Shown: in pieces, positions 13,809-61,341 of the stretch
How the letters are laid out: every line of letters starts with the position of its first letter
How positions within the stretch are numbered: position 1 is the stretch's first letter
Origin: Candidatus Daviesbacteria bacterium
GTDB taxonomy: Bacteria > Patescibacteriota > Microgenomatia > Daviesbacterales > UBA10151
Assembly (NCBI GenBank): GCA_016176465.1
Contig: JACOXD010000008.1
Span: 7,680-71,679 of the forward strand
Reading direction: 5' to 3'
DNA length: 64,000 nucleotides
Made by a program: the position numbers and the translations under genes
The notes under the pieces: generated by a model
Database searches by the model: none
What the model was told of the DNA's origin: nothing
Seen by the model: the letters and a program-made list of their open reading frames with translations, nothing else

Positions 13809-14555
13809 ATGTTTAAAATCAAAAATCCATTTATAGTTTTGAGAAATTTTTTTAAAAGATATATCAACAAAAAATATCCAAGTTGGGATATAACCATTGC
13901 TTTGCGCTACTTTCCTATTGTTTCGGATCTAAAAAAGATCTATCAAGATGGGGAAAAGATTTTGGAAGTAGGTTCTGAGATTTCTGGTATCACGCCCTAT
14001 CTTAAAAAAAAAGTTTATGGAGTTGACATTAATTTTGATTACAGCAAACAAAACAAATACTTAAAACCCATCAAAGCATCTGCTATCAACCTTCCTTTTA
14101 AAAATAACTCAATAGAATATATTTTATCTGTTGATATGTTGGAACATCTAAATCCAAAATTAAGGATTAAGGCAATAAAAGAGATGCTAAGAGTTGCCAA
14201 AAAGAAAATCTTTCTTTCGTTTCCTACTGGATTGCACTCAGAAAAAGTAGATCTTGATCTTTATTTGTATTTTAAAAAAATAGGATTTGATTATCCTTAT
14301 TTAATGGAGCATATAAACTTAGGATTGCCTAACTTTGATGAGATTGTAGACTTTATAAGATTGCATAAAAATATTAAACTTAAGGTAAAAGGAAATACAA
14401 ATATATTTATTTGGAAAAATCTATTGAAATTAGGGATGTCTAATCATCGTTTTAAATCAAGTCTGTATAAAAGATTCCTAATTTTATTTCCCATTTTACG
14501 CCATTTAAACTTTCATCCAACTTATCGTAAACTTTTTATTTTGGAGTTATTGTGA
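13809..14555 (+). CDS. Class I SAM-dependent methyltransferase
   Basis: It has motif I (ILEVGSEISGITPYL) and the post-I/II motifs YGVDIN...VDMLEHL. It is a paralog of the ORF at 54186. Confidence 0.55.
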   Translation: MFKIKNPFIVLRNFFKRYINKKYPSWDITIALRYFPIVSDLKKIYQDGEKILEVGSEISGITPYLKKKVYGVDINFDYSKQNKYLKPIKASAINLPFKNNSIEYILSVDMLEHLNPKLRIKAIKEMLRVAKKKIFLSFPTGLHSEKVDLDLYLYFKKIGFDYPYLMEHINLGLPNFDEIVDFIRLHKNIKLKVKGNTNIFIWKNLLKLGMSNHRFKSSLYKRFLILFPILRHLNFHPTYRKLFILELL

Positions 14556-23013: not shown

Positions 23014-23490
23014 TTATCTGGTAGCTGGCTTTGGCCAGTGAGCAACATATTCCCTTACTGGCCGGGAAAGAAATTCAGCTATAGGGCGATGATCATATTG
23101 TGTGAATCCTCCGTCGCTAAAATCATAAACCCTAAGATTCCACATTGGGTGCCTGGAATAATGGGGAGTTTCTATATAAGCTGTCAATAGTTGCATGCCA
23201 ATTTTGGCTTGTTCTACTACAGTTGGGGGATCCAAAGAAAGGTCTGGATTTCTAACATCTATTAATAATCCTCCTCCTTCTCTAAGTGTTACTTCCATGT
23301 AAATATATCCTCTTTCTTCTGGTTGCCCTGATATGGACAGAAGTAGATGCTTTGGTTTTTCAACAACTGATATCCTGCGGAGTTGTCCGTTTTGGTCTGG
23401 AGCGGTTACCATTATATCTCCTATGACAGATCTAGCTGTTGAAATAGTAGGATTTCCAGTTAACATTTGTTCTACGAGTTCATATGCCAT
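23014..23490 (-). CDS. Hypothetical protein (orphan, visibly higher GC than surroundings)
   Basis: The 158-aa ORF has no recognisable motif. It is convergent with the DUF4012 gene and sits immediately left of the duplicated recO 5' fragment. Confidence 0.35.
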   Translation of the reverse strand: MAYELVEQMLTGNPTISTARSVIGDIMVTAPDQNGQLRRISVVEKPKHLLLSISGQPEERGYIYMEVTLREGGGLLIDVRNPDLSLDPPTVVEQAKIGMQLLTAYIETPHYSRHPMWNLRVYDFSDGGFTQYDHRPIAEFLSRPVREYVAHWPKPATR

Positions 23491-23583: not shown

Positions 23584-23650
23584 ATGCCTGCGATAACTAC
23601 AGAAGGACTTATTTTAAAAAGATCTAATTTTGGGGAAGCGGATAGGGAAA
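23584..23650 (+). pseudogene. Duplicated 5' fragment of recO (first ~21 codons plus ~12 nt upstream)
   Basis: MPAITTEGLILKRSNFGEADR matches MPAVTTEGLILKRSNFGEADR of the full recO at 24757 (20/21 aa). Nucleotide identity is ~83%, with the mismatches mostly at synonymous positions. After codon 21 the reading frame runs into repeat elements. Confidence 0.6.
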
Positions 23651-23849: not shown

Positions 23850-24605
23850 ATGTTTGATAGAGAGATGGCTAGAAGTATTATGCAAGAACTTAAAAAGGCC
23901 TCTATAGCAACTCGTAGAATTGTTGAGGATGGATTTGCAGGAGAAGGCGGGTACTGGGGAGCACGGAGGAGTAGCTTAATTAGCATTCAAGTTTTTTTTA
24001 TGGGTGTATTATCTTTACCCATAAAAACTCATTTAGAAATGTTTAAAGCCCCCGGTGAACAAATATATGGTTTGGATTTAATGGGTGAAGCGGAACATTT
24101 GAGAGATTTAAATGTTAGAGGTTTGGGAGTAACTGTGATTGATGATAGAAGTAGGGCAACAAAACTGGAGGACAATGAAAGAGGTATTACAATAATAGGA
24201 ACAAAATTTGATCCAGAAGCTAAGAAAATTATTGAGCTTTCCGATATTTTCTCCGGAAGAACAAGAAGGAGGATTCGAAGGTATATCAAGGATAATGAGA
24301 TTCCTGGTTTTGATTTAATTACTTGTCGTCCTCTTGGAGCTATAAGTTTGGTTCCAAAAGATGTGAATACAGCTTTTTACTTAGTGCAATTTATGTGGGG
24401 TTTACTAAATCCAGAGTATGGATTACTGTTAACTGAGGTGCCCAAAATTGATCCTGGCTTGGTTAATTCTTGGTCTGAGAGGTTAAATACTGATAGAATT
24501 TGTGCAAAATACAAAGAATTTCAGTTATTGAATCCAGGCATATTACAATTGGTAAAAACTCCATCTTCACCCAAGCATTTATCCTCTATTGAAGTTACTA
24601 GTTAA
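23850..24605 (+). CDS. Hypothetical protein (orphan)
   Basis: The 251-aa ORF lies between the recO fragment and intact recO. It has no recognisable motif. Confidence 0.35.
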   Translation: MFDREMARSIMQELKKASIATRRIVEDGFAGEGGYWGARRSSLISIQVFFMGVLSLPIKTHLEMFKAPGEQIYGLDLMGEAEHLRDLNVRGLGVTVIDDRSRATKLEDNERGITIIGTKFDPEAKKIIELSDIFSGRTRRRIRRYIKDNEIPGFDLITCRPLGAISLVPKDVNTAFYLVQFMWGLLNPEYGLLLTEVPKIDPGLVNSWSERLNTDRICAKYKEFQLLNPGILQLVKTPSSPKHLSSIEVTS

Positions 24606-24756: not shown

Positions 24757-25395
24757 ATGCCGGCGGTTACCACAGAGGGGTTAATTTTAAAAAGGTCTAA
24801 TTTTGGAGAGGCGGATAGGGTTTTAACTGTACTTACAGATAGGTATGGCAAAATTTCTGTTATTGCTAAGGGAGTTAGAAGGATTACCTCCCGAAGAGCT
24901 GGGAATGTGGAGTTACTAAATAGAGTTAAGCTACATTTATTTAAAGCTAAAAATTATAACCTAACTGAGGCAGAATCTATAGAAACTTTTCCTAAATTAA
25001 AAGAGAACTTAACTCTATCTACAACAGCTTTCCATATTTTAGAGTTAATAGATAGATTAACAGCAGAAGAGCAAAAAAGTCCAAAGTTATATGAACTTAG
25101 TATCTCAATTTTTAGAATTTTAGAACAAAACCCCAGGCAAATTTTTATTAGAGGTTTTGAGGTTAAAATTTTATCTTTACTTGGGTTTTGGTCTATTAAT
25201 GCTATTAAAGAATTAAATGAGGAGCAGAAAAATATTTTGGAAAAGTTAGAATATCAGAGTTGGGAAAAAATAGGGGAGATAGATATTGGCCCCGAGCAAA
25301 GTGATAATTTAGAAAAAATATTAAGGTTTTACCTAGAAAAAATCCTAGAAAGTTCTCTTAAAAGTGTAAAGGTTTTAAAGGATTTAAAGAAGTAA
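24757..25395 (+). CDS. recO: DNA repair protein RecO (short form, no Zn finger)
   Basis: The N-terminal OB-fold segment TEGLILKRSNFGEADRVLTVLTDRYGKISVIAKG is typical of RecO. Confidence 0.65.
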   Translation: MPAVTTEGLILKRSNFGEADRVLTVLTDRYGKISVIAKGVRRITSRRAGNVELLNRVKLHLFKAKNYNLTEAESIETFPKLKENLTLSTTAFHILELIDRLTAEEQKSPKLYELSISIFRILEQNPRQIFIRGFEVKILSLLGFWSINAIKELNEEQKNILEKLEYQSWEKIGEIDIGPEQSDNLEKILRFYLEKILESSLKSVKVLKDLKK

Positions 25396-25419
25396 CTTTA
25401 TTTTTGATATTATATCTTT

Positions 25420-25677
25420 GTGAAGATAATCTTTACAAAACATGCTGAGTCAAAATTCCAAATTTTTTCATCTGGAAAAGTTGTTATAAATAAAGAGAAT
25501 GTTCTAGAGACTGTAAAAAGTCCTGATTTTAAGGATATTGAATCAGATAAACCAAAGATTATAGTTAGTAAGGAGTTAATTGATAAGCTCATTTTGAGAG
25601 TAGTCTATAAAAAAGAGCGTGGTATAATTACCATAGTTACGTTTTATCCCGCAAGGAAAGGAAGATATGAAAAGTAG
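25420..25677 (+). CDS. DUF4258-like small protein (putative toxin)
   Basis: It is 85 aa with a GTG start. Its pattern (MKIIFTKHAESKF...GIITIVTFYP) and size fit DUF4258. It overlaps the next ORF by 11 nt. Confidence 0.45.
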   Translation: MKIIFTKHAESKFQIFSSGKVVINKENVLETVKSPDFKDIESDKPKIIVSKELIDKLILRVVYKKERGIITIVTFYPARKGRYEK

Positions 25678-25921
25678 TCAAAAAATTAGTTACGAACCAA
25701 AAGATGATGTGTTAAATATTTGGCTGTCAAGGGAGCCTATTGATTACGCTGAGCAAAATGGTGATGTAATTGTCCACTTTAGTAAAGATAATGAAGCAGT
25801 TTATATAGAGATTCTTGATGCCAGTAAGATGTTAAAAGATTTAAGTAAAACTATTCCCAGTAATCTTAAAAAAAGTTGGTTTAGTATACCTACTTCTTCT
25901 ATAGCGCATAGAATTAAATAA
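25667..25921 (+). CDS. DUF2283-like small protein (putative antitoxin partner of DUF4258)
   Basis: MKSSQKISYEPKDDVLNIWLSREPIDYAEQNGDVIVHFSKDNEAVYIEILDASK matches the DUF2283 pattern (K..YD.E.D.LYI.L). Confidence 0.5.
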   Translation: MKSSQKISYEPKDDVLNIWLSREPIDYAEQNGDVIVHFSKDNEAVYIEILDASKMLKDLSKTIPSNLKKSWFSIPTSSIAHRIK

Positions 25922-25925
25922 ATTC

Positions 25926-26156
25926 GTGAAAAACAAAATTCAATATAGCGATGAACCAATTGAGGCAAGAGTAATAACTGATTTTTTACCAAGCCCTGAA
26001 AATTTAGTGCTCAAAGAAAAAAAGAAGAGAGTCACAATAACTTTAACTGATAAAAGTTTAGACTTCTTTAAAAAAGCTGCTAAAAAACATGGTGCTTCTT
26101 ATCAGGCAATGATAAGAAGGTTAATTGATTTCTATGTAGCTAACCAAAGAGTCTGA
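25926..26156 (+). CDS. BrnA/CopG-like ribbon-helix-helix antitoxin
   Basis: KRVTITLTDKSLDFFKKAAKKHGASYQAMIRRLIDFYV is BrnA-like (RHH followed by a helix). Confidence 0.5.
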   Translation: MKNKIQYSDEPIEARVITDFLPSPENLVLKEKKKRVTITLTDKSLDFFKKAAKKHGASYQAMIRRLIDFYVANQRV

Positions 26157-26321
26157 ATCATATTAGAAAAAATGACTTTGTGGTGGGAAAGGAATTGGCA
26201 TCGAGTTGTAAAAATTCTTATTATACTTTTTTTATTTTATCTTTGGTTGAATTAGTCCAAATAATCCCAGATAGCAAGCAGATTAATTGTGTTACAAGTG
26301 TCTTAGTAATAAAATGCAGAT

Positions 26322-29300
26322 ATGTTCAAGAGATATTTAAACGCAGTTTTTGAGAAATATAACACCGGTGAGGCTAGTGAACGGAGTTATTATTCATTAC
26401 TTGAGGAGTTGCTTAAGAGTTTCCAAAAAGATACACAAACAATTGTTGAAGCAAAGAAGTCGAGAGTTGGAATTCCTGACTTTAAAGTGAAGACTGAAAA
26501 AAACCTTTTAGTTGGTTATATTGAAGCTAAAGATTTAAGCAACGATTTAGATAAACTTGACAATGTAGATAAAGAACAAATAGAGAAATATAAGAAAGAA
26601 TACCCAAAACTTATAGTGACTAATTTTATTGAGTTTAAGCTATATGAAAATGGTGAATTAGTTGATTCTGTCTTTATTACTCAACCAATAACTCGTCAAA
26701 TTGGAATTCCAGCATTAGATAACGAAGCTAGGATTAATGGTTTATTTGAAAGATTTTTTTCAACCACAATACAAGAGGTTCATTCTGCAAAAAGATTGTC
26801 TGAGCTCTTAGCGCATAAAACACGAGTGTTGAGGGATTTAACCAGAGAAGAGATTGATCTAACTGATCAAGAAGAAACAGAAACAGAAAAGTTACTAAAG
26901 ACTTTCAAACAGACTCTTAAGCCCGATATGAGTCCAGATGTTTTTGCAGACATGTACGCCCAGACAATTACATTCGGACTGTTTGTAGCCAGAATCAATT
27001 CAGATCACCAAGAGTTTACTCGTCATAGTGCTCATTCATTGATACCTCATACAATTCCCCTTTTGAAAAAAATATTCTGGATTTTATCAGGCCAAGACGT
27101 ACCACAGCACATTGAATGGCAAATTGATGAAATCGCTGAGATTTTAGCAAATACCAAAATCGAAAAAATAACTGAGGAATTTTTCAGTCATGGAAAAGGT
27201 AGGGATCCCATCATACATTTTTACGAAACTTTTCTGTCAGAATATGATTCAAGTCAAAGGGAGCAGTTAGGGGTTTATTACACTCCACAACCAGTAGTTT
27301 CTTACATAACGAGATCACTAAATAAAATTTTAAAAAATAATTTTGGAAAAAGTGAAGGTTTTGCTGACACATCAGTAATATCTCTTGATCCGGCTGCTGG
27401 TACGCTTACTTTCCCTGCAGAAGCTATAGCAATTGCAAAGCAAGAATTTGAAGCCTCTCATGGGAGGGGAGGATGGAATAGCTTGGTGAAAGAACATATT
27501 CTCAAAAACTTTTATGCTTTTGAAATTTTAATGGCCCCGTATGCAATTGGACATCTAAAAATTTCTTTACTTCTTAAGGAGCTAGGTTACGAAATGAGTG
27601 AAGATGAGCGGTTTGAGTTATACCTTACGAATACTCTTGATATGTCCAAATTGAAACTCCAACAGGAAATGTTGGCTGAAGAGATATCAGAGGAATCTGA
27701 GAAGGCATTTGAGATAAAAGATAAAGTACCAGTCCTCATTGTTATGGGTAATCCCCCTTATTCTGGACACTCATCAAATAAAGGTGTGTGGATAGAAAAT
27801 CAAATAGAGGAATATAAAAAAGTTGACGGCAAACCATTAGGAGAAAGAAATCCCAAGTGGTTGAATGATGATTATGTAAAGTTTATACGTTTTGCCCAGT
27901 GGAAAATAGAAAAGACTGGCCAGGGTATTTTGGGATTTATCACCAACCATGCTTGGCTTGATAATCCAACTTTTAGAGGAATGAGAAACTCGTTGATGAA
28001 GTCCTTTGATGAGATATACATTCTAAATCTTCACGGTAGCGCACTGAAAAAAGAAAAAGTTCCAGAAGAGGTACAAGATAAAGAAAAAATTGGTGAGAGA
28101 GATGAGGGGGTTTTTGGTATTCGTCCAGGAACCGCTATTACATTAGCAGTAAAGAGAAATCAATCGAAGGGTAAGTCCAAAGTTTATTATTCTGGACAAT
28201 GGGGACTGAGAAGTAAGAAATTTGAATGGCTTGACAGTCACGACGTTGAACTTACAGATTGGAAACTTATTACTCCAAAGAGTTCAACTTATCTATTTAT
28301 AGAAAGAAATGAAAAGGAGTTTATTACTTATGAGAAGTTTACTTCAATTAGGGATGTTTTTCCTTTGAGTGGAATAGGAATTATAACAGCTCGTGACCAG
28401 TTTGTAATTGATCTTGATAAAAATGCGTTAGTAAATAGGATTAGATTATTTAAATATTCTAAGGAAAATGACGAACAATTGCACCTCCTATTTCAAATTA
28501 GCAAAAAGAAGGGTTGGTCTATCAGGAGAGCTTGGGAAATGTTGCAAAAAGTAAACGATGAGGAAATTAATGATTTAGTCGTTAAAATTCAATATAGACT
28601 CAACGATGAAAGATGGATTTTCTACCACGATTCTTTAGTTTGGAGGACAGTTAAGAGAATTATGTTTCAATTATTGAGACCAAACTTGGCATTGGTTACT
28701 TGTAGACAACTAACTGGTAGTAATTTCCAGCATTCCTTTGCGGTTGATAAATTAGTTGATGATAGTTTTATTTCAAATAAATCTAAGGAAAGAGGTTACG
28801 TCTTCCCATTGTATATTTATAGTGACAAAGGTCAACAAAGCCTTTTACTCGAAGATAGCGATAGAAGGCAGAATATAAACTGGAACTCATTGCCAGAATG
28901 GATGGCAATGATACAGCCTTTTACTTCTCACGCAACAAACAACTTTATTCAAGTTCCAGAAGCCATCTTTTATTATATTTATGCTGTTTTATATTCGAAT
29001 GTTTATCGCAAAAAATATCAGGAATTTCTGAAGTCTGATTTTCCAAGGATTCCTTTTACAAAGGACAATGAACTTTTCCGATCTTTAGCAATTCTGGGAG
29101 AGCAGTTAGTTGAACTTCACTTACTGAAATCAAAGTTACTAGTTAAACCAGTATCCCACTACGAAGGCAAGGGGGATAATAGGATAGGAAAAAGAAACTA
29201 TAATGGGTCATCCCGTGTTTATATAAACGATTCACAATTTTTTGACAAGGTTAGTCCAGAGGTTTGGAACTATTACATTGGTGGATACCAAGTATTGGAT

Positions 29301-29441
29301 AAGTGGTTAAAAGATAGAGTCGGACGAATTTTATCACTTGAAGATCAATTACATTATAGGAAAATGATTACTGCTTTATCTGAGACAATAAATATTCAGA
29401 AGAGAATTGATAAATTTTATCCTGAAGTGGAAAAACTTTAA
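26322..29441 (+). CDS. MmeI-like single-polypeptide type IIL restriction-modification enzyme (PD-ExK nuclease + gamma-class N6-adenine methyltransferase + TRD)
   Basis: The N-terminus has GIPDF...VGYIEAKD, a PD-(D/E)xK-like motif. The centre has DPAAGTLTF (motif I-like) and LIVMGNPPYSGHSS (motif IV NPPY). There is no Walker A or helicase motif. The 1039-aa length and domain order fit the MmeI family. Confidence 0.7.
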   Translation: MFKRYLNAVFEKYNTGEASERSYYSLLEELLKSFQKDTQTIVEAKKSRVGIPDFKVKTEKNLLVGYIEAKDLSNDLDKLDNVDKEQIEKYKKEYPKLIVTNFIEFKLYENGELVDSVFITQPITRQIGIPALDNEARINGLFERFFSTTIQEVHSAKRLSELLAHKTRVLRDLTREEIDLTDQEETETEKLLKTFKQTLKPDMSPDVFADMYAQTITFGLFVARINSDHQEFTRHSAHSLIPHTIPLLKKIFWILSGQDVPQHIEWQIDEIAEILANTKIEKITEEFFSHGKGRDPIIHFYETFLSEYDSSQREQLGVYYTPQPVVSYITRSLNKILKNNFGKSEGFADTSVISLDPAAGTLTFPAEAIAIAKQEFEASHGRGGWNSLVKEHILKNFYAFEILMAPYAIGHLKISLLLKELGYEMSEDERFELYLTNTLDMSKLKLQQEMLAEEISEESEKAFEIKDKVPVLIVMGNPPYSGHSSNKGVWIENQIEEYKKVDGKPLGERNPKWLNDDYVKFIRFAQWKIEKTGQGILGFITNHAWLDNPTFRGMRNSLMKSFDEIYILNLHGSALKKEKVPEEVQDKEKIGERDEGVFGIRPGTAITLAVKRNQSKGKSKVYYSGQWGLRSKKFEWLDSHDVELTDWKLITPKSSTYLFIERNEKEFITYEKFTSIRDVFPLSGIGIITARDQFVIDLDKNALVNRIRLFKYSKENDEQLHLLFQISKKKGWSIRRAWEMLQKVNDEEINDLVVKIQYRLNDERWIFYHDSLVWRTVKRIMFQLLRPNLALVTCRQLTGSNFQHSFAVDKLVDDSFISNKSKERGYVFPLYIYSDKGQQSLLLEDSDRRQNINWNSLPEWMAMIQPFTSHATNNFIQVPEAIFYYIYAVLYSNVYRKKYQEFLKSDFPRIPFTKDNELFRSLAILGEQLVELHLLKSKLLVKPVSHYEGKGDNRIGKRNYNGSSRVYINDSQFFDKVSPEVWNYYIGGYQVLDKWLKDRVGRILSLEDQLHYRKMITALSETINIQKRIDKFYPEVEKL

Positions 29442-29450
29442 TTGATTAAG

Positions 29451-29468
29451 GATACAATATATTGTATC
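29451..29468. promoter_or_regulatory. Perfect 18-bp palindrome GATACAATATATTGTATC abutting a TTGACT -35-like hexamer (29469-29474) upstream of the HNH gene
   Basis: This is a perfect inverted repeat seen directly in the sequence. It may be an operator site. Confidence 0.45.
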
Positions 29469-29505
29469 TTGACTTATTAACGGTGGTATATGTTATGGTG
29501 GAAGT

Positions 29506-29793
29506 ATGAATAGCTTACTAAAATGTCGTTATTGCGGTTGGGTGGGAGGAAAAAGTGATTTTGAATGGGATCATATGGATCCTAAAATTAAAACAGAGTC
29601 ATTTCTGTTAGATTTTCTACAAGGGAAACTTGAACTAATTTGTTCAGGATGTAATAGGCAAAAAAGCGATAAAACTTCACAAGATTATACATTTTGGAGA
29701 TGGTTATTCCCTAGACAGGCAAACTTTGGTCCTATAAGAGCACATACTTTTATGGATACATTGCTCCAAAGAATTCATAGAGAGATTAGATAA
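29506..29793 (+). CDS. HNH endonuclease-fold small protein
   Basis: It shows CRYCGW...EWDHMDP...GKLELICSGCNRQKSD, i.e. CxxC / D-H / N / CxxCN spacing. Confidence 0.55.
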   Translation: MNSLLKCRYCGWVGGKSDFEWDHMDPKIKTESFLLDFLQGKLELICSGCNRQKSDKTSQDYTFWRWLFPRQANFGPIRAHTFMDTLLQRIHREIR

Positions 29794-29832
29794 TTTTCCA
29801 ATATTTTTGATTCTATTTTTAAATAATTTTAT

Positions 29833-29901
29833 GTAACCCCAAATTCCACCTGTGTAACCCCAAATTCCACCTGGGAGGTGGATTAGCTTGACACCTAGGG
29901 A
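29833..29901 (+). repeat. Family B 69-nt composite repeat: tandem 21-mer x2 (GTAACCCCAAATTCCACCTGT), hairpin CCACCTGGGAGGTGG, then TTGACACCTAGGGA
   Basis: It is ~87% identical to 61273-61341. It contains an internal direct repeat plus a perfect 6-bp-stem GC hairpin. Confidence 0.8.
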
Positions 29902-29950
29902 TTTAAGAATTTTTTGAGGCTGTTTTGGATGAGTACATATTATAATACTT

Positions 29951-30150
29951 TTATGGCAATTGATTGGACAAACATTTATAAAAAATATAAGGGCCTTTGG
30001 GTGGCATTAAGAGAAGATGAGATAACTGTAGTTTCCTCTGGGAAAAATGCAAAAGAAGCTTGGGAAAAAGCACAAAAAATGGGCTTTAAAAAACCAATAT
30101 TAATGAATGTGCCTAAAAATTTAACTTATTTTGTCACTGGAACTTATTAA
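29951..30150 (+). CDS. Small DUF5678-like protein
   Basis: MAIDWTNIYKKYKGLWVALREDEITVVSSGKNAKEAWEKAQKMGFKKPILMNVP fits the pattern of small K-G-x-WVAL...VV..G...E...A...G...P proteins. The track ORF starts at a TTG at 29914; the ATG at 29951 is more likely. Confidence 0.4.
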
Positions 30151-30186
30151 TCTTCGACAATATCTCTCATAATTTGTGCTAAAAAA

Positions 30187-30195
30187 TGCTAGAAT
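30187..30195 (+). promoter_or_regulatory. Extended -10 promoter element TGCTAGAAT upstream of glyS, followed by a leader hairpin (aatgtcattctga...tcaggatgacaat)
   Basis: A TGnTAnAAT match lies ~85 nt upstream of the glyS ATG. The leader contains an imperfect 11-bp inverted repeat. Confidence 0.3.
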
Positions 30196-30275
30196 GAAAG
30201 GAATGTCATTCTGACACGTAAGTGAAGAATCTAATTAGATCCTTCGGCCAGAGCCTCAGGATGACAATATAAAAT

Positions 30276-31613
30276 ATGGATGATAACAAGCAAGATTTAA
30301 TGGAAAAAATTGTAGCTTTATGTAAGAGAAGGGGATTTATTTATCCTGGATCTGAAATTTATGGTGGTTTAGCAAATTCTTGGGACTATGGACCTTTAGG
30401 AGTGGAACTAAAAAATAATATTAAAAACCTTTGGTGGAAAAAGTTTGTACAAGGCAGAGATGATATTGTTGGAATTGATGCTTCTTTAATAATGAATCCA
30501 AAAGTTTGGGAAGCGAGTGGACATCTAGAAAATTTTACTGACCCTTTGGTTGAGTGTAAAGTTTGTCATCAACGTTTCAGGGCTGATGAGATAGAAGATG
30601 CTTGCCCGAATTGCGGAGAGAAAAATTCTTTTACAGAGACGAAGGTTTTTAATTTGATGTTCAAAACTTTCGTTGGTCCTGCCCAAGAAACTTCAAATGT
30701 TGCTTATTTTAGACCAGAAACAGCTCAGGCTATGTTTGTGGATTTTAAAAATGTGATTGATTCAACTAGAGTTAGACTTCCCTTTGGGATTGCTCAAATT
30801 GGAAAAGCTTTTAGAAATGAAATAACCCCAGGGAATTTTATTTTTAGGACTAGAGAGTTTGAGCTGATGGAAATTGAATATTTTATAAGAGTTCCAAAAT
30901 CAGATAAGGAATGGCAAAAAGAGTTTGAAAAATGGAAAGAAATGATGTGGAGTTGGATTGTGAATGATCTGGGAATTGATAAAACTAAAGTTCATGAACT
31001 AGAAGTGCCGGATGCAGAGCGTGCCCATTATTCCAAACGCACCATAGATTTTGAATATGATTTTCCTTTTGGTAGAAAAGAACTTTATGGGTTAGCATAT
31101 AGAACTGATTTTGACTTAAAGAATCATCAAGAATTCAGTGGCCAAAATCTAAAGTATAGAGATCCAGAGGCAGGTGAGGAGTTTTGGCCGCATGTAATAG
31201 AACCAGCGTTGGGGGTAGAGAGATCAGTTCTGGTTGTACTGGTCGATTCATATCGAGAAGATGAAGGAAGGGTGTATCTTAAACTTCCGGCCAAATTGGC
31301 TCCCTATAAAGCCGCTATATTTCCACTTTTAGGCAATAAACCAGAACTAATTGAGGTTGCTAGAAAAATTTATCTGGATTTAAGAAAAGAATTTATGGTA
31401 GCCTGGGATGACAGGGGAAATATAGGAAAGCGTTATGCAAGCCAGGATGAAATAGGAACACCCTACTGCATAACTGTTGATTTTGATTCACTAGAAGATG
31501 GCGCAGTAACTGTTAGGGATAGAGATAGCACTAAACAAGAAAGAGTTAAAATCCAAGAATTGAAAAATTACTTACTATCTTTTATAAATACTGAAAAATG
31601 TTTTACTTCGTAA
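30276..31613 (+). CDS. glyQS: Glycine--tRNA ligase (alpha2 type)
   Basis: It is 445 aa. The N-terminal GFIYPGSEIYGGLANSWDYGPLGVELKNNI and class II motifs are present. Confidence 0.85.
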   Translation: MDDNKQDLMEKIVALCKRRGFIYPGSEIYGGLANSWDYGPLGVELKNNIKNLWWKKFVQGRDDIVGIDASLIMNPKVWEASGHLENFTDPLVECKVCHQRFRADEIEDACPNCGEKNSFTETKVFNLMFKTFVGPAQETSNVAYFRPETAQAMFVDFKNVIDSTRVRLPFGIAQIGKAFRNEITPGNFIFRTREFELMEIEYFIRVPKSDKEWQKEFEKWKEMMWSWIVNDLGIDKTKVHELEVPDAERAHYSKRTIDFEYDFPFGRKELYGLAYRTDFDLKNHQEFSGQNLKYRDPEAGEEFWPHVIEPALGVERSVLVVLVDSYREDEGRVYLKLPAKLAPYKAAIFPLLGNKPELIEVARKIYLDLRKEFMVAWDDRGNIGKRYASQDEIGTPYCITVDFDSLEDGAVTVRDRDSTKQERVKIQELKNYLLSFINTEKCFTS

Positions 31614-61192: not shown

Positions 61193-61272
61193 AGAGCTAA
61201 TTTTAACAGTTTGGGGACCTTTTTGCAAACTATAGGTTGGAAGAATATTTATAATTCTGCGAAAAAACAGAC

Positions 61273-61341
61273 GTAATCCCAAATCCCACCTGCGTAATCC
61301 CAAATCCCACCTGGGAGGTGGATTCCTATTGACACCTAGGG
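61273..61341 (+). repeat. Family B 69-nt composite repeat (second copy), located between tRNA-Asp and the orphan ORF
   Basis: GTAATCCCAAATCCCACCTGCGTAATCCCAAATCCCACCTGGGAGGTGGATTCCTATTGACACCTAGGGA is ~60/69 identical to 29833-29901. Confidence 0.8.

Follow-up and report, generated by a model that had tools for sequence, protein, structure and literature searches.

[quoted passage not shown]

We analysed a 64-kb stretch of DNA (the window) in which a large ORF is followed, on the same strand and 64 nt downstream, by a small HNH gene. Our results make it very likely that the large ORF encodes an intact DrdV-like Type IIL (Type IIG) restriction-modification (RM) enzyme that stands as a lone gene, and that its HNH neighbour is a separate cassette. 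An earlier note on this DNA gave exact ORF coordinates, and it described a single polypeptide combining a nuclease, a gamma-class methyltransferase and a target recognition domain (TRD), with no motor; motifs, Pfam and regex searches agreed on this description. The features of the locus are listed in Table 1.

Table 1. Features of the RM gene, its junction with the HNH gene and the surrounding islet (positions in the window)
Feature	Positions	Strand	Basis or remark
Three small TA-like genes, separate islet cassette	25420..26156	+	Absent from the sister genome L112
DrdV-like single-chain Type IIL/IIG restriction-modification enzyme (very likely)	26322..29441	+	1039 aa
Predicted N-terminal PD-ExK nuclease domain, aa 1-125	26322..26696	+	HMMER alignment to 7lo5, invariance, model
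Predicted helical connector, aa about 126-294; equivalent of the DrdV dimerisation region	26697..27203	+	Model, DrdV alignment
Gamma-class N6-adenine methyltransferase domain, aa about 295-640	27204..28241	+	Pfam N6_Mtase and Eco57I, motifs
TRD, Type_ISP_C family, aa about 641-1039	28242..29438	+	Pfam
Perfect 18-bp palindrome GATACAATATATTGTATC, junction of RM module and HNH cassette	29451..29468	.	Sequence scan
TTGACT, -35-like	29469..29474	+	Hexamer type also found ahead of HNH homologues elsewhere
Stand-alone minimal HNH (beta-beta-alpha-metal) nuclease, 95 aa	29506..29793	+	Pfam HNH, alignment
DUF5678 small protein, further islet gene	29914..30150	+	Conserved promoter-like element precedes

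Domains and family of the large ORF

The large ORF carries PDF..IEAK at aa 52-70, and a regex check located methyltransferase motif I (DPAAGTLTF) at aa 356-364 and motif IV (NPPY) at aa 477-480; motif I precedes motif IV, the order of the gamma class. In Pfam, N6_Mtase and Eco57I both scored above their cut-offs, and Type_ISP_C was matched over aa 678-1025 (245 bits, E 1.6e-72). PADLOC returned REase_MTase_IIG at 833 bits, together with a mad2 match at 2e-7. Neither a Walker A motif nor a DEAD/DExH motif was found by regex, no helicase was matched in Pfam, and NCBIfam held no family for the protein.

We then compared the large ORF with known structures. By sequence, the top full-length match in the PDB was DrdV (7lo5; aa 52-710 and 864-936, E 3e-40), and the alignments to LlaGI and LlaBIII covered the methyltransferase-TRD part only. 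The fold search also placed DrdV first over the full length (E 6e-31), followed by LlaBIII and LlaGI (E 1e-24 to 1e-25), with PglX/BrxX (E about 1e-7) and MmeI (E 2.5e-5, rank 43) as distant matches. In the HMMER alignment to 7lo5, residues D53, E68 and K70 aligned to D64, E79 and K81, the catalytic residues given in the DrdV paper. This triad was invariant across 21 homologues of 50-74% identity, as were DPAAGTLTF and NPPY. A nuclease, a methyltransferase and a TRD, the features of single-chain Type IIL/IIG enzymes of the DrdV-like lineage, were all found on the same chain.

A structure model of moderate quality was obtained (mean pLDDT 72, with the TRD core poorly predicted). Its nuclease domain showed an alpha-beta-beta-beta-alpha-beta order at pLDDT 80-91, consistent with a nuclease fold, and its connector region was all-helical. 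These data bear on the reading that the large ORF is a methyltransferase only (an orphan, BREX PglX-like or HsdM-like) or a degenerate Type ISP enzyme. The annotation names of the source database records point that way, as do the distant PglX/BrxX fold matches and the mad2 match, but we consider this reading very unlikely. The invariant PD-ExK triad corresponds to the catalytic residues of DrdV, modelling of the N-terminal domain is confident and gives a secondary-structure order that fits a nuclease, and no helicase domain or motif is present. The earlier note had named placement in the PglX or HsdM families, with no nuclease domain, as evidence that would speak against it; the triad was present and no PglX model in PADLOC was matched. 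In the window, the neighbours of the large ORF are TA-like genes, recO and glyS rather than a brx/pglZ cluster, and among the homologues no neighbour of any kind recurred (BREX genes were not searched by name).

The homologue survey covered about 85 loci from many phyla, and the absence of a conserved neighbour indicates that there is no separate S or M subunit and that the gene is solitary. The large ORF is intact and belongs, as an unremarkable member, to a known and very widespread one-protein RM family, which comprises at least 7978 proteins from at least 599 species. In databases these proteins are named 'N-6 DNA methylase', 'predicted helicase' or 'type ISP restriction/modification enzyme', and thousands of DrdV-like single-chain enzymes, the window enzyme among them, carry such labels; the main practical use of our result is therefore for annotation. 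The invariance of the PD-ExK nuclease points to complete restriction systems, which is relevant to estimates of the defence repertoire in small-genome Candidate Phyla Radiation (CPR) bacteria.

Across the family, conservation was lowest in the TRD core. Between the window enzyme and that of a sister Daviesbacteria genome (L112), the core was 30-46% identical, compared with 68-96% for the remaining protein. Specificity is probably set by this variable core (aa 642-841), and the family is a source of new specificities, since the core differs even between sister genomes.

Judged from its motifs, the enzyme should both cut and methylate. By analogy with DrdV, the enzyme would hold a short asymmetric site in its methyltransferase-TRD clamp and, with S-adenosylmethionine (SAM), would methylate one adenine on one strand, so that the host is protected. 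On unmodified DNA with several sites, enzyme molecules would assemble via their connectors and swap nuclease domains, each cleaving the partner-bound duplex at a fixed distance from the recognition site. The RM gene would act alone, without a partner gene. The oligomerisation and the cleavage geometry in this scheme are extrapolated from DrdV at about 20% identity.

The recO-glyS islet and the junction

The genes recO (24757-25395) and glyS, encoding class II GlyRS (30276-31613), were confirmed as the flanking genes. Related genomes have recO next to glyS, directly adjoining in one (L113) and with one small gene between in another (L111), which bears out the islet proposed in the earlier note. 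In the sister genome L112, the same RM gene occupies the same recO-glyS site, and the islet there has DUF5647 and DUF7718 in the place of the TA trio and the HNH gene. The islet inserted here is variable, with the RM gene as one of its cassettes, and the locus is a clear-cut case of a hot spot for cassette swapping between two core genes of Daviesbacteria. The L112 copy of the enzyme is frameshifted, showing that genes of this kind can decay, and the window copy is intact.

By blastn, homology to L112 begins at 26273, in the flank upstream of the RM gene (26273..26321, plus strand), and ends near the centre of the 18-bp palindrome, before the HNH module. The upstream flank is likely to contain the RM-gene promoter, for which a putative TTGTGT-17 nt-TAAAAT was read by eye. 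The 5' end of recO is duplicated, and an integrative element bounded by this duplication was considered; no integrase was found in the 1.1-kb interval linked to it.

The upstream trio had been described as DUF4258/DUF2283/BrnA-like. The DUF2283 assignment held for the 84-aa protein (43.8 bits in Pfam), and the BrnA-like one held in part, as the 76-aa protein matched RHH_1 above the cut-off (23.8 bits) with BrnA below its own. DUF4258 was not detected at E up to 5; the 85-aa protein gave a sub-threshold match to PBECR3 (17.2 bits), a Barnase-EndoU-ColicinE5/D-RelE-like nuclease family.

We also examined the junction between the two modules. A perfect 18-bp palindrome ahead of the HNH gene, as claimed earlier, was found, and TTGACT abuts it rather than overlapping it as had been stated. 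The palindrome has no second exact copy in the window, and with up to 3 mismatches allowed only one other match was obtained, at 14111 with 3 mismatches. In the AT-rich window, 7 palindromes are perfect over arms of 9 nt or longer, and this one is therefore not extraordinary by itself. In the consensus promoter scan the TTGACT site was not called, and no -10 hexamer lay at a spacing of 16-18 nt from it; the best candidate by eye was TATGGT at a spacing of 19 nt. Overall, the promoter and terminator scans gave counts at background level. Palindromes behind other RM homologues and in front of HNH homologues had other sequences; what recurred was only the general theme of an operator inside a promoter.

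A structured RNA or a strong terminator was considered and found unsupported: Rfam returned nothing in 22.5-31 kb, and the fold of the palindrome region was no better than that of shuffled sequences (z -1.0), as was that of the repeat region.

The HNH gene and its contexts

The HNH protein matched Pfam HNH at 27.8 bits (cut-off 21.4). In the alignment, the four-cysteine zinc site (C7, C10, C46, C49), D22-H23 and N50 were all invariant, and the predicted catalytic residues are intact. Its structure model (pLDDT 65) was too poor for a confident fold assignment. No match was obtained in viral contigs or in the GenBank phage collection, and a phage origin of the gene therefore could not be shown.

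We next assessed whether the HNH gene accompanies the RM gene, as the earlier note had suggested. No HNH homologue was found beside RM homologues at any of 80 genome loci, when all ORFs were searched with phmmer and the regex CxxC..DH..CxxC[HN], nor beside any of the four close homologues of 70-74% identity. The proposed link thus failed by the earlier note's own criterion, conservation of the HNH ORF next to homologues. Since the gene is missing beside about 85 RM homologues, including the same-site copy in L112, and its own homologues lie in other contexts elsewhere, it is a separately acquired cassette and not a component of the RM system. The alternative that the earlier note had offered, a regulator-controlled selfish element or a separate mini-system, fits it best.

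The same evidence weighs on the reading of an MmeI-family Type IIL enzyme that forms, with the HNH protein as accessory cutter, a two-gene unit under control of the palindrome. The domain order is as in MmeI, MmeI_N was weakly matched in Pfam (20.7 bits, E 5.5e-4), and the two genes are closely spaced on the same strand. However, MmeI_N did not reach its cut-off of 27, and MmeI_hel, MmeI_Mtase, MmeI_TRD and MmeI_C had no match in the large ORF at E up to 0.01. With the low rank of MmeI in the fold search, the absence of the HNH gene from the surveyed loci and the end of L112 homology before the HNH module, this reading is highly improbable and already largely refuted. MmeI-family membership was rejected on the sub-threshold or absent MmeI models, the Type_ISP_C TRD and DrdV as the top match. 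Of the MmeI/NmeAIII architecture claimed earlier, the domain order stands, and the family is instead DrdV-like with a Type_ISP_C TRD.

For the HNH gene as a separate cassette, homologues elsewhere are informative. The family is rare and consists of 70-100 aa proteins in various defence and mobile contexts, usually with their own TTGAC[AT] promoter and palindrome and often divergent from a repressor gene. The HNH protein could act as nuclease or toxin within a small regulated module that tends to lodge in RM and defence loci, and the window copy would be an orphan that has lost its repressor. Such a module could be toxin-antitoxin-like, or an SOS- or repressor-controlled nuclease; this reading concerns the HNH gene only and is compatible with our preferred explanation of the locus. 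It draws on divergent LexA/S24 repressor genes in three loci (L107, L109 and L110), XRE-type repressor genes in two (L095 and L102), operator-like palindromes within promoters and the intact catalytic residues. In most other sufficiently flanked loci, a co-oriented ORF, often small, comes within about 100 nt downstream. In L095 the HNH gene is embedded between hsdM and hsdS; its neighbour is a type II-like pair in L001 and a C5 methyltransferase in both L107 and L110, and L108 has a CBASS-like pair in the vicinity. Against this, only about 9 contexts are informative and their neighbours are heterogeneous, and the window has neither a repressor gene nor a tightly coupled downstream gene. We hold this reading tentatively, as a possibility somewhat below an even chance.

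In 4 independent contexts, HNH homologues are found within or beside RM loci of other types, and a loose functional tie may exist between the HNH family and RM systems in general. A more specific proposal, which we consider doubtful, is that the family is a repressor-controlled cassette that specifically colonises, or cooperates with, RM loci of unrelated types: Type IIL in the window, Type I hsdM/hsdS, the Type II-like pair and the C5-methyltransferase loci. If so, the cassette would be a selfish element with RM loci as safe havens or, alternatively, the HNH protein would be a backup or abortive nuclease freed on loss of the repressor; the homology break at the centre of the palindrome would mark a cassette-exchange site. 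We regard this side-observation as a lead, not a result.

Comparison with known systems

The best fold match of the HNH protein was the Gme HNH nicking endonuclease of Geobacter metallireducens (PDB 4H9D; probability 0.90, TM-score about 0.42, weak E 0.15), likewise an HNH protein that stands alone, at about 90-100 aa; the PDB sequence search detected no relationship between the two.

The large ORF shares with the MmeI family (Type IIL; PDB 5HR4) its general architecture and the logic of single-strand modification, but the MmeI fold match is distant, at 9% identity. [quoted passage not shown] Type ISP enzymes have an SF2 helicase-like ATPase between nuclease and methyltransferase, which is absent from the large ORF, and the translocation-collision mechanism of Type ISP is therefore impossible for it. 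The deposited chains of LlaGI and LlaBIII have 1406-1578 aa, about 400-500 aa more than the large ORF. The nuclease of the large ORF aligns with the PD-ExK domain of DrdV, whereas an Mrr-type nuclease is described for Type ISP.

The closest known system is DrdV of Deinococcus wulumuqiensis (Type IIL; PDB 7LO5/7LVV), in which, according to the DrdV paper, the methyltransferase and TRD closely resemble those of LlaGI and LlaBIII. The host of the large ORF, unlike that of DrdV, is a CPR bacterium, and the TRD cores of the two enzymes are unrelated in detail, so the DrdV site CATGNAC cannot be transferred to the large ORF. Despite low overall identity, DrdV is of nearly the same length (1029 aa) and has an identical domain order, with a PD-ExK nuclease, a helical connector, a gamma-class methyltransferase and a Type ISP-like TRD.

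The large ORF and its enzyme class

The source contig belongs to Candidatus Daviesbacteria of the Candidate Phyla Radiation (CPR). The earlier note had located the large ORF, a restriction-modification (RM) gene, and the small HNH ORF exactly (table below). Public records with 100% identity name the products 'N-6 DNA methylase' and 'HNH endonuclease', respectively. The nuclease and methyltransferase motifs cited in the note were present in the large ORF (PDF...IEAK at aa 52-70, DPAAGTL at 356 and NPPY at 477), and the motif search revealed no Walker A or DEAD/DExH motif, as had been claimed. P52-D53, E68-A69-K70, DPAAGTLTF and NPPY did not vary across 21 aligned homologues of 50-74% identity.

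The large ORF protein is a DrdV-like Type IIL/IIG enzyme. Pfam matched Type_ISP_C (aa 678-1025, 245 bits), Eco57I and N6_Mtase, and PADLOC assigned the protein to its REase_MTase_IIG models (best 833 bits). A sequence search of the PDB aligned DrdV (7LO5, 1029 aa, Type IIL) from the nuclease motif on (aa 52-710 and 864-936, E 3e-40), pairing D53, E68 and K70 with DrdV D64, E79 and K81. According to the DrdV paper, D64 and E79 are metal ligands, and K81 is the PD-ExK lysine, whose mutation abolished catalysis. The AlphaFold model had a mean pLDDT of 72 (80-91 in the N-terminal 120 residues) and an alpha-beta-beta-beta-alpha-beta nuclease domain. In Foldseek searches with this model, DrdV chains were the best matches and spanned the full length (E 6e-31); LlaBIII and LlaGI came next (about 1e-24 to 1e-25), ahead of BREX PglX (about 1e-7).

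The earlier note had proposed an MmeI-like single-chain enzyme. The class stood, and the MmeI architecture holds in a broad sense, but membership of the MmeI family does not: MmeI_N scored 20.7 bits against a cut-off of 27, no other MmeI-specific domain was matched by Pfam, and MmeI ranked 43rd in Foldseek (E 2.5e-5). A Type ISP or BREX identity was also rejected. [quoted passage not shown]

The family is very large, with at least 7978 relatives at E <= 1e-20 among 8000 scored candidates, nearly all about 1040 aa long and encoded in at least 599 species genomes from many bacterial phyla and some archaea. Conservation was lowest in the TRD core (aa 641-850; mean identity to the window protein 0.40 vs 0.53-0.69 elsewhere). 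When every ORF lying up to 2.5 kb from the RM gene was clustered across about 85 loci, no neighbour recurred, near-duplicate loci aside, indicating that the RM gene works alone. In Gottesmanbacteria/Woesebacteria loci L088-L092 (two related lineages), a conserved 212-aa protein without a Pfam match was encoded 8 nt after the RM homologue, which was itself preceded by a 63-72 aa ORF and a gene with an NYN domain; these genes, absent from the window, may form a lineage-specific accessory set.

Features of the window and contexts of HNH homologues in other genomes or contigs (L handles)
Feature	Position	Strand	Description
Large ORF (RM gene)	26322-29441	+	1039 aa
Small HNH ORF	29506-29793	+	95 aa
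18-bp palindrome	29451-29468		GATACAATATATTGTATC
TTGACT hexamer	29469-29474
~75-bp element, first copy	29832-29901
~75-bp element, second copy	61272-61341		beside tRNA-Asp
Start of intact recO	24757-24820		first 64 bp
Duplicate of recO start	23584-23647		1173 bp upstream, 83% identity
ORF near duplicate	23850-24605		251 aa
ORF near duplicate	23014-23490	-	158 aa
HNH context	L095 1042-7864		between hsdM and hsdS, Type I system
HNH context	L001		adjoins N6_N4 methyltransferase (type II-like) with weak, sub-threshold PD-(D/E)XK-like neighbour
HNH context	L107, L110		adjoins C5 methyltransferase, LexA-like repressor gene
HNH context	L108		CBASS-like NTP_transf_2/Cap15 pair nearby
HNH context	other loci		adjoins SNase, NUDIX, HD and other genes

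The islet between recO and glyS

Pfam identified the flanking genes as recO and class II GlyRS, in agreement with the flanks named earlier. We compared the region with relatives found via their RecO proteins. In L113 (RecO 78% identical) glyS directly followed recO, in L111 (84%) a single 82-aa gene lay between them, and the sister Daviesbacteria contig L112 (82%) carried the same RM gene there. Homology between the window and L112 by blastn was limited to 26273-29459; L112 lacks both the three toxin-antitoxin (TA)-like genes (25396-26272) and the window's HNH/DUF5678 segment (29460-30265), and carries DUF5647 and DUF7718 instead, on the opposite strand. These differences demonstrate that the proposed defence islet is real and made of exchangeable cassettes. 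For the upstream TA trio, Pfam supported DUF2283 and, more weakly, an RHH/BrnA-like protein, but DUF4258 was not matched in the 85-aa ORF, whose sole match was a sub-threshold PBECR3.

Within the shared RM gene, the TRD core (aa 642-841, window 28245-28844) was 30-46% identical to the L112 enzyme vs 68-96% for the remainder, and 28301-28850 did not align at the DNA level. This divergence in otherwise similar enzymes at the same chromosomal site suggests, from sequence, that the recognition module was replaced and the specificity changed, so that the two enzymes may recognise different sites. In L112 a GAGAGA tract 2 nt shorter than its window counterpart (28083-28103) breaks the gene into ORFs of 593 and 461 aa (L112 4690-4760), reflecting either real decay or inactivation or an assembly error.

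The beginning of recO was found duplicated, and the two nearby ORFs had no Pfam match. In L111 DUF4012 is directly followed by recO, so the 5' side of recO in the window represents a second insertion or rearrangement.

The HNH gene and its upstream region

The product of the small ORF is a minimal HNH protein, matched by the Pfam HNH model at 27.8 bits. C7, C10, D22-H23, C46, C49 and N50 were invariant among its relatives, a C-terminal W-R...A-N-x-G-P motif was conserved, and the window copy was longer than its relatives by about 14-17 aa at the C terminus. The family is rare: a word-based search found 3 further proteins, a metagenome scan 17 loci, and just 16 representatives among 1.84 billion reached E <= 1e-10, beyond which the family merges with the HNH superfamily at large. 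It was absent from the phage collections searched. The structure model was poor (pLDDT 65), and its best fold match, a weak likeness, was the small Gme HNH nicking endonuclease 4H9D (probability 0.90, E 0.15).

A partnership between the HNH protein and the enzyme, raised in the earlier note, is refuted by the criterion that the note itself had set, as the HNH gene was absent beside all RM homologues examined, L112 included. HNH homologues elsewhere were preceded by a promoter-like TTGAC[AT] site of their own, in most cases accompanied by a palindrome that differed in sequence, and usually lay divergent from a repressor gene, of LexA/S24 type in L107, L109 and L110 and of XRE type in L095 and L102. 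The HNH gene is a cassette of its own, probably regulated and mobile, and its copy in the window is an orphan that lacks a repressor gene. The family occurred inside or beside RM loci of different types in 4 of about 9 informative contexts; this recurrence is a lead and does not tie the HNH gene to the window enzyme.

The 18-bp palindrome described in the note is perfect and has no second exact copy in the window. Since 7 perfect palindromes whose arms reach 9 nt or more occur there, its presence is unremarkable in itself. The right end of the window-L112 homology lay near its centre, and L112 kept the left arm alone. The TTGACT hexamer was present as described, abutting the palindrome rather than overlapping it, and a consensus scan called no promoter there.

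A conserved ~75-bp element occurred twice in the window, comprising a 21-bp direct repeat x2 (TGTAACCCCAAATTCCACCTG), the hairpin TCCACCT-GGG-AGGTGGA and TTGACACCTAGGGA. The second copy precedes a 613-aa ORF, putatively a PolX-type polymerase. The core also follows recO in L111 (5739-5785), where another repeat, 13 bp long and in three copies, stands in front of it. Rfam had no match; the element looks like a candidate promoter or operator.

Proposed mechanism and comparison with known systems

The analysis established the domain composition, intact invariant catalytic motifs, lack of a motor domain and solitary gene organisation of the enzyme, and showed that it is homologous to DrdV and, in its methyltransferase-TRD unit, to the Type ISP enzymes. 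By analogy with DrdV, the methyltransferase-TRD clamp would recognise an asymmetric site, and one adenine on one strand would be flipped and methylated. Cleavage would require that several molecules, each bound to a site, come together and exchange their nuclease domains, and the cut would fall at a fixed distance downstream; the site and distance of this enzyme cannot be predicted.

The DrdV authors described its methyltransferase and TRD as highly similar to those of LlaGI/LlaBIII, with a common origin and different cleavage mechanisms. The large ORF shares this homologous methyltransferase-TRD unit with LlaGI/LlaBIII but differs from them in having no motor domain, and it resembles DrdV from the nuclease motif onward, with the D/E/K residues aligned.
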